Source: an uncultured Alphaproteobacteria bacterium | Lineage (GTDB): Bacteria; Pseudomonadota; Alphaproteobacteria; RF32; CAG-239 | Length of the DNA: 64,000 nucleotides | Assembly: GCA_944391425.1 (NCBI GenBank) | Contig: CALXTO010000001.1 | Span: 75,066-139,065 of the forward strand | Direction: 5' to 3' | Part shown: positions 43,089 to 44,825 of the stretch, piece after piece | Position numbering within the stretch: position 1 is the first letter of the stretch | How the letters are laid out: each line of letters starts with the position of its first letter | Position numbers and translations under genes: made by a program | The notes under the pieces: generated by a model | What the model saw: the letters and a program-made list of their open reading frames with translations, nothing else | Told to the model about the DNA's origin: nothing | Database searches by the model: none

Positions 43089-44174
43089 CTAGCGGACAAG
43101 ATTTTTTTTGACAACCAGATGCAAAATTTCGTCACTGTCCAAAAGTTCTACGGCACGCTGAAACATTCCCGGTTCGGAAAGAATTGTGTAATAATCCTTT
43201 TTGACTGTCGGCGCCATCCGCAAAGCGGAAATAAACTCTTCTTTATCAAACGGGTTGTGACTGACAAATTCAAAGAAGCCCGTCCGCAACAAAACCTCTT
43301 TCAGGCTTTCGGTTTCCGGATTTTCCTGCAGCAAGGCGCACAGATAAGATGCGACTCCGACCTGCAGCCCGTGCATTTTCGGATACCGGGAAACATCGTC
43401 CAGCGCATGGGATATCAGATGTTCGGAACCGCTGGCCGGACGCGATGTACCGGCAATCTCCATGGCAATGCCGGACATCAGAAGCGAGGTAACCAGACTG
43501 CGCTGAAACTCCGGCGCGGCAGGGTCAAAACTGTGTTTAATGAACAAAAGATCCAGCGAATTATATGCCATCAGAGAGGCAAAATCATTATAACGTTCAT
43601 AGCCTTTCAGAAAAGCTTTTTTCCAGTCCCACAAAGCCGTCACTTTTGAAATCATATCGCCCAGCCCCGAATAAACGCAGGCTTGCGGACATTCCTTTAT
43701 GACATCCAGATCGGCAATGACGCCGAAAGGAATGCTGGATTTGACGCTTTTGCGCCGCCCATCGACCAAAAGCGAACAATTGGGACTGCAGAAACCGTCA
43801 TTAGATACCGAAGTCGGAACGGAAATAAAGGGAATTTTAAGCAAATGAGCCGCATATTTGGCAAAATCCAGCGCTTTGCCGCCGCCGATGCCGACAATGG
43901 CGTTAAGAACGGGCGGGAGATTAAACGCTACTTTAGCAACCTCTTCCAGATTGATAAAACGGACATCCTGCTTATGAAGCATATTGATACCATAGGCGCG
44001 GATACTACGGTTGAAACGTTCACCATAGACATCCTCCAGGCCTTCGCTCCAAAACACGGCAATATTCACCATGTCTTTGTCGATTAGGTATTTTCCGGTT
44101 TTATCCAGCTTGCCCGGGCCTATTTTCAGAAGATAAGGGATGTTTATCTGCCGATTGGAAGGATAATATACCAT
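43089..44174 (-). CDS. egsA: sn-glycerol-1-phosphate dehydrogenase (EgsA/AraM family)
   Basis: 361 aa with the blocks GIGGGKALDFAKY, IPFISVPTSVSNDGFCSP, GLGDMISKVTALWDWK and SRPASGSEHLISHALD. The last is near-identical to the archaeal G1PDH signature as I recall it. Confidence 0.8.
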   Translation of the reverse strand: MVYYPSNRQINIPYLLKIGPGKLDKTGKYLIDKDMVNIAVFWSEGLEDVYGERFNRSIRAYGINMLHKQDVRFINLEEVAKVAFNLPPVLNAIVGIGGGKALDFAKYAAHLLKIPFISVPTSVSNDGFCSPNCSLLVDGRRKSVKSSIPFGVIADLDVIKECPQACVYSGLGDMISKVTALWDWKKAFLKGYERYNDFASLMAYNSLDLLFIKHSFDPAAPEFQRSLVTSLLMSGIAMEIAGTSRPASGSEHLISHALDDVSRYPKMHGLQVGVASYLCALLQENPETESLKEVLLRTGFFEFVSHNPFDKEEFISALRMAPTVKKDYYTILSEPGMFQRAVELLDSDEILHLVVKKNLVR

Positions 44175-44825
44175 TCAGATCTCCTTTAAATAGTTCAGCA
44201 CATCGCCAAAAGTGTTGAAAGGTTGTGTTATTATATTAGCTTCTCTGCATTTTTTCAGCAAGAATTTTTTTGCAAAAACGGCATCAGCTATCCGTGCCGG
44301 GGCAACGTCTGGCGGACCGTCTCCGCACAGAACGGTTTTATATCCCCGCTCTTGTAAAAAACGGACCACTCCGGCTTTGGAAATGCCGACATCTTTGTCA
44401 TAGAAAGGGCTGTTCCGCGGCGGAATTAATTTTAAACCGTCGGCCGGACTATATTCCCCGTGATTGGTAACCAGACAAATATCGTATTTCTCCAAAGCAT
44501 CGCCCAATATTCTTTTGATGTAGTAATCACAGCCTGCCGAGCAAATATAAAAGGGAATTTTCCTTTCTTTGCAGTATCGCGCCGTGTCAAAGAAAGCGCC
44601 GTCGACGGGAATCCTGTCAATAAAAGCCAACAGTTCTTTTTCGGGAATCCTGATTTGGGCAAAAACCCTTCCCAATGCTTCAATATGGGTCATTTTTCCC
44701 TGCAGGTACAGATGCCACGGCTCCAATGCGTCCGGCGTCAGGTATTTGTTGACGATGAGGTCAAAAAAATCATCGTCGCTGATTGTTCCGTCAAAATCCG
44801 TTACCAAAGCCAGTTTATTTTGCAT
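44175..44825 (-). CDS. HAD-IB family phosphatase (MtnX-like)
   Basis: 216 aa with a DxDxT motif (LVTDFDGTISDDDF), SAG and GDGPPD motifs. Its stop abuts the egsA start (TGAATG). Confidence 0.8.
   Translation of the reverse strand: MQNKLALVTDFDGTISDDDFFDLIVNKYLTPDALEPWHLYLQGKMTHIEALGRVFAQIRIPEKELLAFIDRIPVDGAFFDTARYCKERKIPFYICSAGCDYYIKRILGDALEKYDICLVTNHGEYSPADGLKLIPPRNSPFYDKDVGISKAGVVRFLQERGYKTVLCGDGPPDVAPARIADAVFAKKFLLKKCREANIITQPFNTFGDVLNYLKEI

Follow-up and report, generated by a model that had tools for sequence, protein, structure and literature searches.

Two abutting genes lie on the minus strand of the window, a stretch of 64,000 nucleotides from an uncultured alphaproteobacterium (contig CALXTO010000001.1 of assembly GCA_944391425.1). 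The first gene of the pair (44175..44825), picked out from the list of open reading frames (ORFs) and by the NCBIfam model TIGR01489, encodes a 216-residue HAD-IB phosphatase of the MtnX-like, or PHOSPHO-like, type. The second (43089..44174) encodes an NAD(P)H-dependent dehydrogenase of the glycerol-1-phosphate dehydrogenase (G1PDH) family, 361 residues in length, which falls in a bacterial subfamily that includes the structure 3CE9. Read directly from the sequence, the junction of the two genes (44172..44186, minus strand) runs AAAGGAGATC-TGA-ATG-G. The stop codon of the phosphatase (TGA, 44177-44175) abuts the start codon of the dehydrogenase (ATG, 44174-44172), and the AAGGAG ribosome-binding site of the dehydrogenase (44186-44181) is found within the phosphatase gene. 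Given the positions of the stop, the start and AAGGAG at the junction, we conclude that the translational coupling is real.

The genome to which the window belongs measures 1.47 Mb and is scored 100% complete. The ten closest loci in reference genomes all come from uncultured gut Alphaproteobacteria, metagenome-assembled genomes (MAGs) of the CAG:495 type, which bears out the alphaproteobacterial host given in an earlier note on this DNA. Both ORFs, and the TGA placed against the ATG, are also as that note described them.

Family placement of the two proteins

The 361-residue protein includes the motifs TSRPASGSEHLISHALD and GLGDMISKVTALWDWK, and the motifs SRPASGSEHLISHALD and GDMISKVTALWDWK, quoted earlier, were likewise found in it. 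The signature blocks of G1PDH that the earlier note had claimed for this ORF were located, and the G1PDH equivalog NF002022 was its top match among the NCBIfam models, at 230 bits. The Pfam match was to Fe-ADH_2 (PF13685, 130 bits). The glycerol dehydrogenase model NF006941 gave 58 bits against a cut-off of 336 bits, and AroB gave 18 bits. In a comparison with PDB sequences, the protein scored 285 bits with 3CE9, 151 bits with G1PDH from Methanocaldococcus jannaschii and 106 bits with AraM from Bacillus subtilis.

A HMMER scan over 1.84 billion cluster representatives identified 327 proteins at E <= 1e-30. A first tree, built from 128 of these, placed the query in a 99%-supported clade of 29 proteins, apart from the other 99. 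A second tree was calculated with IQ-TREE (LG+C20) from 79 sequences and rooted on Escherichia coli GldA; it included the G1PDHs from M. jannaschii (4RGQ) and P. calidifontis (5FB3), B. subtilis AraM (9H4X), and 3CE9 from Clostridium acetobutylicum. The query and 3CE9 fell in one clade of 51 rows (support 100/98), the sister of which is the group that contains the three assayed G1PDHs (4RGQ, 5FB3 and 9H4X); GldA lies outside, on a very long branch. NF002022 gives 135-243 bits for the proteins sampled from the 3CE9-like subfamily, as against 284-333 bits for those sampled from the canonical group. The named members of the subfamily belong to Clostridia, Bacilli, Izemoplasmataceae, Brevinematia, Treponema and Desulfovibrionaceae, and are annotated solely as "iron-containing alcohol dehydrogenase family protein."

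The AlphaFold2 model of the dehydrogenase (pLDDT 93) was used for a search with Foldseek. The first match was 3CE9 (TM score 0.92/0.95), followed by the G1PDHs from M. jannaschii and P. calidifontis, by AraM, and lastly by the GldAs; the TM score against M. jannaschii G1PDH was 0.75-0.83. We also checked by hand an alignment of the query with the M. jannaschii and P. calidifontis enzymes, AraM, 3CE9 and E. coli GldA. The GGGK-x-x-D dinucleotide motif is present in the query (G97-G99 and D103), and its metal ligands, D173, H252 and H268, align with those of the assayed G1PDHs and of GldA; H256 is present besides. Two features are common to the query and the assayed G1PDHs and absent from E. coli GldA: an insertion of the SRPxSGSEH type (SRPASGSEH, residues 244-252) and a K-x-TA-x-x-DW block, of which GldA has no trace. 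In these G1PDH-specific motifs the query is closer to the archaeal enzymes than AraM, an experimentally proven G1PDH, is. Tree, fold search and alignment all put the query with the G1PDH radiation. A placement with GldA or 3-dehydroquinate synthase would have contradicted the assignment made in the earlier note, and that objection fails because the clade of the query is sister to the assayed G1PDHs. We conclude that the dehydrogenase is neither a glycerol dehydrogenase nor a 3-dehydroquinate synthase, and that the locus can be counted in the G1PDH family if this is taken broadly, but not in the curated equivalog.

Among known structures, 3CE9 (NP_348253.1) shares the subfamily of the query, about 40% of its residues, and motifs that include S-x-PASG-x-EHLISHALD. 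It is known from its structure, our literature search found no published assay of it, and its near relative in Clostridium butyricum has no phosphatase gene beside it. Archaeal G1PDH, or EgsA (4RGQ and 5FB3; EC 1.1.1.261), agrees with the query in fold, in the motifs for cofactor and metal and in the insertion specific to G1PDHs, and belongs to the sister group. It is about 29% identical to the query, and in archaea its product goes to GGGPS, an enzyme that this genome lacks.

The 216-residue phosphatase passed the cut-off of TIGR01489, "MtnX-like HAD-IB" (105 bits against 81.55), but reached neither of the MtnX equivalogs (NF007103, 102 against 292 bits; TIGR03333, 88 against 303 bits). Its nearest, and sole, solved relative is B. 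subtilis MtnX (2FEA, 74 bits), which is in the same HAD-IB subfamily; the genomic context here is a dehydrogenase gene and not mtnW. HAD motifs I to IV (DxDxT, S/T, K and GDxxxD) are complete, T14 included, and in 26 partner phosphatases conservation of the catalytic residues D10, D12, S96, K150, D169 and D173 is 95% or higher. By its profile scores, then, the protein is a HAD-IB phosphatase and not MtnX proper (EC 3.1.3.87).

A phosphatase as the recurrent partner

The pair is intact in all 10 of the close relatives. In a sample of 401 alphaproteobacterial genomes, five carry a close homologue of the dehydrogenase (59% identity or more); they belong to four families and measure 1.4-2.3 Mb. 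The phosphatase has close homologues in these five genomes and in no others of the 401, each time adjacent to the dehydrogenase gene. Both genes are lacking from two complete genomes of the family to which the window belongs.

A scan of metagenomes with an alignment of the subfamily gave 80 loci with 40-76% identity to the query, which were reduced to 37 informative lineages by dereplication at 80% identity and by the requirement for sufficient flanking DNA. In 20 of the 37 lineages a HAD-IB gene immediately precedes the dehydrogenase gene on its strand, and as a rule the two overlap or abut; in a further nine the adjacent gene encodes a HAD-IIA phosphatase of the NagD/AraL type, eight times upstream and once downstream. 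Across phyla the dehydrogenase is strictly inherited together with a phosphatase. In the IQ-TREE phylogeny, the HAD-IB partners are scattered over four subclades, that of 3CE9 among them, and the HAD-IIA partners are concentrated in one, a pattern that looks like the swap of one phosphatase for an unrelated one in the same slot. Because two unrelated phosphatase subfamilies occupy the same position, it is the phosphatase step as such that appears to matter. Across the 80 loci no further neighbor recurs, pflA included, and the pair is a self-contained, translationally coupled two-gene metabolic module. The constant partner of this whole bacterial G1PDH subfamily is neither a prenyltransferase nor an acyltransferase but a phosphatase, taken from one or the other of two unrelated HAD subfamilies.

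Of the arrangements described so far, araL-araM of B. subtilis comes closest, and the literature search found no paper on a HAD-IB/G1PDH pair. In araL-araM, too, a HAD phosphatase gene directly precedes a gene of the G1PDH family; AraL is a HAD-IIA phosphatase, whereas the enzyme here is HAD-IB, and AraM, a Ni2+-dependent G1PDH (9H4X), lies outside the subfamily of the query and is more distant from it than the archaeal enzymes are (106 bits). Neither an ara operon nor PcrB accompanies the query. The echo of araL-araM that the earlier note heard in this locus is therefore partly justified: the adjacency of phosphatase and G1PDH genes recurs, and one subclade does use AraL-type HAD-IIA phosphatases, but the phosphatase of the present pair is of the other kind.

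Several individual loci depart from the common arrangement. The single downstream HAD-IIA gene (locus L064, 9037-9831) is found in a lineage whose nearest relatives (L049 and L063) have no phosphatase gene and whose next relatives, among them a Treponema MAG, have HAD-IB. In Cytobacillus spongiae both genes are on one replicon, 240 kb apart. The dehydrogenase gene DVU_RS16375 on pDV of Desulfovibrio vulgaris Hildenborough and that on the C. butyricum megaplasmid stand alone, in contexts that are uninformative on function. In one other gut lineage (L026-L029, 7383-7853, minus strand, and L043) the pair is flanked divergently by a gene for a 156-residue protein of the cytidylyltransferase family, for which the TagD model gives no more than 39.8 bits; the same neighborhood includes glycosyltransferase, pyruvyl-transferase and EptA-like genes. 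A metagenomic protein of 579 residues (P0152) consists of a nucleotidyltransferase domain, similar to IPCT and to the N-terminal part of GlmU, fused to a G1PDH of the canonical group (315 bits), which suggests a one-protein route to nucleoside diphosphate-activated glycerol phosphate in another lineage. Three other apparent fusions were discarded. The N-terminal extensions in L082 and L086 are artefacts, long open frames in high-GC DNA that overlap the upstream HAD-IIA gene, and P0155 (338 residues, with a HAD N terminus and a G1PDH C terminus) has the appearance of a gene call that is truncated or chimeric, and no conclusion here draws on it.

Glycerol phosphate metabolism and the proposed function

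Profile searches of the genome's contigs, in each of which the positive controls came out as expected, gave no match in this 100%-complete genome to PcrB/GGGPS (PF01884), CarS (PF01864), PF01467 cytidylyltransferases including the TagD type, TagF-type glycerophosphotransferases (PF04464), FGGY kinases such as GlpK, MIP channels such as GlpF, or GDPD phosphodiesterases. A UbiA protein of the DGGGPS type was not found either; the sole UbiA-family protein is of the decaprenyl-phosphate phosphoribosyltransferase type (248 bits against a cut-off of 234). Both GpsA and PlsY are encoded, so ordinary lipids based on sn-glycerol-3-phosphate (G3P) are made. Neither PcrB nor an FGGY kinase was matched above cut-off in the four other alphaproteobacterial carriers. 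The earlier note had proposed that the pair supplies sn-glycerol-1-phosphate (G1P) to an ether-lipid pathway or to some other G1P-consuming pathway. It had itself named a complete genome free of G1P-consuming enzymes as a result that would weaken the lipid hypothesis, and that is the result obtained. The first proposal is contradicted by a complete genome that contains none of PcrB/GGGPS, CarS and a DGGGPS-type UbiA, and for the second no consuming enzyme was found, neither a PF01467 cytidylyltransferase nor TagF. The gene pair is real and widespread; its striking lipid interpretation does not hold. Since the constant partner of the dehydrogenase is a phosphatase, dephosphorylation of G1P is indicated rather than its incorporation.

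From these observations we infer the substrates of the pair, the order and stereochemistry of its steps, and its physiological purpose. In the reading that we tentatively prefer, and which falls a little short of being probable, the pair would convert dihydroxyacetone phosphate (DHAP) via G1P to glycerol, as a shunt separate from the G3P lipid pool. The dehydrogenase would most likely reduce DHAP with NAD(P)H to G1P in a metal-dependent reaction, and the HAD-IB phosphatase would most likely remove the phosphate from G1P, for a net reaction of DHAP and NAD(P)H to glycerol and inorganic phosphate. The glycerol might serve as a redox sink or as a solute. A phosphatase selective for G1P would spare the G3P that GpsA provides for PlsY-dependent phospholipid synthesis. 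AraL has no detectable activity on glycerol 3-phosphate and is weakly promiscuous on sugar phosphates, with a Km of about 30 mM; G1P was absent from the substrates tested (PMC3207120). The inactivity of AraL on G3P fits a partner phosphatase that is selective for one enantiomer.

Yeast makes glycerol from DHAP by way of glycerol phosphate with Gpd1/2 and the HAD phosphatases Gpp1/2, as a redox sink or osmolyte. The proposed module would follow the same logic; the yeast dehydrogenase is unrelated (GpsA family), the intermediate is the opposite enantiomer and the genes are unlinked. Since G1PDH generally counts as a sign of archaeal-type lipids, finding it in bacteria is often treated as evidence on the "lipid divide." Should the shunt be real, many bacterial "archaeal lipid" genes would instead belong to an undescribed route from DHAP to glycerol through a mirror-image intermediate, the scoring of such genes in metagenomes would change, and a physiological substrate would be suggested for AraL.

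A number of points weigh against the shunt. Neither a HAD-IB nor a HAD-IIA gene adjoins the dehydrogenase in 8 of the 37 lineages, among them C. butyricum, whose dehydrogenase pairs with 3CE9 in the tree and has no phosphatase gene next to it; in the cultured D. vulgaris, the dehydrogenase on pDV is likewise without an adjacent phosphatase gene. Because the partner is missing from beside the gene in these eight lineages and on pDV, the dehydrogenase must have a role without it. The score of 230 bits is below the NF002022 cut-off of 413 bits, and the literature search found no enzyme assay for any member of the 3CE9-like subfamily. A haloarchaeal protein labelled as G1PDH has proved to be a glycolaldehyde reductase without G1PDH activity (PMC9700705), so a place in the family is no guarantee of the substrate. 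Phosphate binding by the SRPxSGSEH insertion is likewise a suggestion drawn from the alignment. The benefit of glycerol to an organism that is unable to re-use it is unproven, and the position of the phosphatase gene ahead of the dehydrogenase gene would suit a reversed sequence of steps just as well.

That reverse order is the first of the alternatives. The phosphatase, whose gene comes first, would act on DHAP, and the dehydrogenase would reduce the resulting dihydroxyacetone to glycerol, for the same net reaction. The deposited name of 3CE9, "glycerol dehydrogenase," agrees with this, although it is a structural-genomics label given without an assay. Such an activity has reportedly been seen in pneumococcal Gtp1; papers call Gtp1 the dehydrogenase or reductase of the cytidine diphosphate (CDP)-2-glycerol route. 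The Gtp1-Gtp2-Gtp3 system of Streptococcus pneumoniae resembles the present locus in being a small set, annotated as dehydrogenase, nucleotidyltransferase and phosphotransferase, that leads to an unusual glycerol phosphate; no nucleotidyltransferase gene is linked to the pair here, and the likeness of Gtp1 and Gtp3 to the two proteins, possible homologues at most, is one of product names. Against the reversed order, the insertion specific to G1PDHs is fully kept in the query, whereas GldA, which binds unphosphorylated glycerol, does not have it, and by scores, tree and Foldseek the query is nearer to the DHAP-reducing enzymes than to any glycerol dehydrogenase. We therefore regard this order of steps as unlikely.

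It is likewise improbable that the pair supplies G1P for a product of the cell envelope, either a glycan donor of the CDP-glycerol type or lipids acylated on G1P by PlsY and PlsC, with the phosphatase trimming the product or controlling the pool. PlsY and PlsC accept both enantiomers of glycerol phosphate (PMC13400652), and PlsY is encoded in the genome; a glycosyltransferase family 2 (GT2) gene lies 1.4 kb upstream of the pair. The lineage with cytidylyltransferase-family, glycosyltransferase and EptA-like neighbors, and the nucleotidyltransferase fused to G1PDH in P0152, are in keeping with an envelope product. That cytidylyltransferase neighbor, however, belongs to one organism only among the 80 loci, and what is conserved beside the dehydrogenase is a phosphatase rather than a transferase. 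No cytidylyltransferase or glycerophosphotransferase gene is linked to the pair in the window's genome, as a CDP-glycerol or teichoic-type module would have it, and PF01467 and PF04464 have no match genome-wide; the nucleotidyltransferases that the genome does encode are of other types and lie elsewhere.

A different substrate is a slightly more doubtful prospect: the pair might use some other small ketose phosphate or polyol phosphate or, once a phosphate has been removed, an aldehyde, for example glycolaldehyde. The haloarchaeal glycolaldehyde reductase is a paralogue labelled as G1PDH whose pathway includes a HAD phosphatase acting on ribulose bisphosphate, MtnX-like phosphatases use a substrate similar to ribulose bisphosphate, and the score of the dehydrogenase lies below the equivalog cut-off. 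Yet the model of the haloarchaeal reductase gives just 33.6 bits on the dehydrogenase, against 230 bits for G1PDH; all of the nearly invariant G1PDH residues are kept, and no aldolase, kinase or isomerase gene recurs beside the pair in the 80 loci.

Very unlikely, in our judgment, is a catabolic role in which G1P released in the gut from archaeal lipids or lipoteichoic acid would be oxidized to DHAP, with a side role for the phosphatase. The organism does live in the gut, the G1PDH reaction is reversible, and bacterial systems for G1P uptake exist (PMC12718374). No transporter or phosphodiesterase gene adjoins the pair in any lineage among the 80 loci, however, the genome has no GDPD, and a phosphatase acting on the same substrate would be wasteful. 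There is a similarly slim chance that G1P is in part acylated to heterochiral ester phospholipids, with the phosphatase setting the G1P level; the bacterium would have PlsY and PlsC at its disposal and lacks the genes for ether lipids, and these gut alphaproteobacteria would, if this were so, be natural carriers of membranes of mixed chirality. An archaeal-type ether-lipid pathway of the PcrB/GGGPS kind is scarcely credible, for although the enzyme is in the G1PDH family and AraM feeds PcrB in B. subtilis (quoted in PMC13400652), the enzymes that would use the G1P are missing from the complete genome, and PcrB is also missing, above cut-off, from the four other carriers.

Flanking genes and other features of the genome

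Downstream of the pair, at a distance of 70 nucleotides, the minus strand carries a gene for a 441-residue protein made up of degenerate repeats of about 20 residues (41693..43018). It is followed by a gene for a 157-residue protein (41215..41688), the last before a terminator-like hairpin of 11 pairs and a T-run (41182..41208, minus strand), which would end a possible four-gene unit. The short intergenic gaps, and the strong terminator-like hairpin after the 157-residue ORF, make it probable that the pair is co-transcribed with these two genes. Neither protein had a match in the Pfam and NCBIfam scans. Both are conserved in 8 of the 10 close relatives, and the 441-residue protein, which is missing in L004 and L006, was seen in only 3 of the 80 distant metagenome loci; the two proteins are lineage-specific and outside the conserved module.

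The nucleotidyltransferases of the window's genome were considered as partners of the pair and rejected. They proved to be a protein similar to the N-terminal part of GlmU, enzymes of the RmlA and GalU types and a MocA-like fusion, all located elsewhere in the genome. The first of these, on contig C40 (locus L036, 1378-2121), is a stand-alone protein of 247 residues that resembles only the N-terminal uridylyltransferase half of GlmU. The PF01467 family normally takes in CoaD and NadD as well as cytidylyltransferases; the lack of any match in a genome scored as complete would mean that CoaD and NadD have been replaced, are missing (auxotrophy) or were missed by the first-look filter.

The gene for the UbiA-family protein (contig C12, locus L002, 1408-2759) overlaps a PgpA-like gene and adjoins one for an NAD-dependent epimerase, an actinobacterial-style polyprenyl-phosphoribose module that is unexpected in a gut alphaproteobacterium. 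Within the window, a cluster of genes for rubrerythrin, a Fur-family regulator and a flavodiiron protein (37967-40220) indicates the lifestyle of an anaerobe under oxygen stress.

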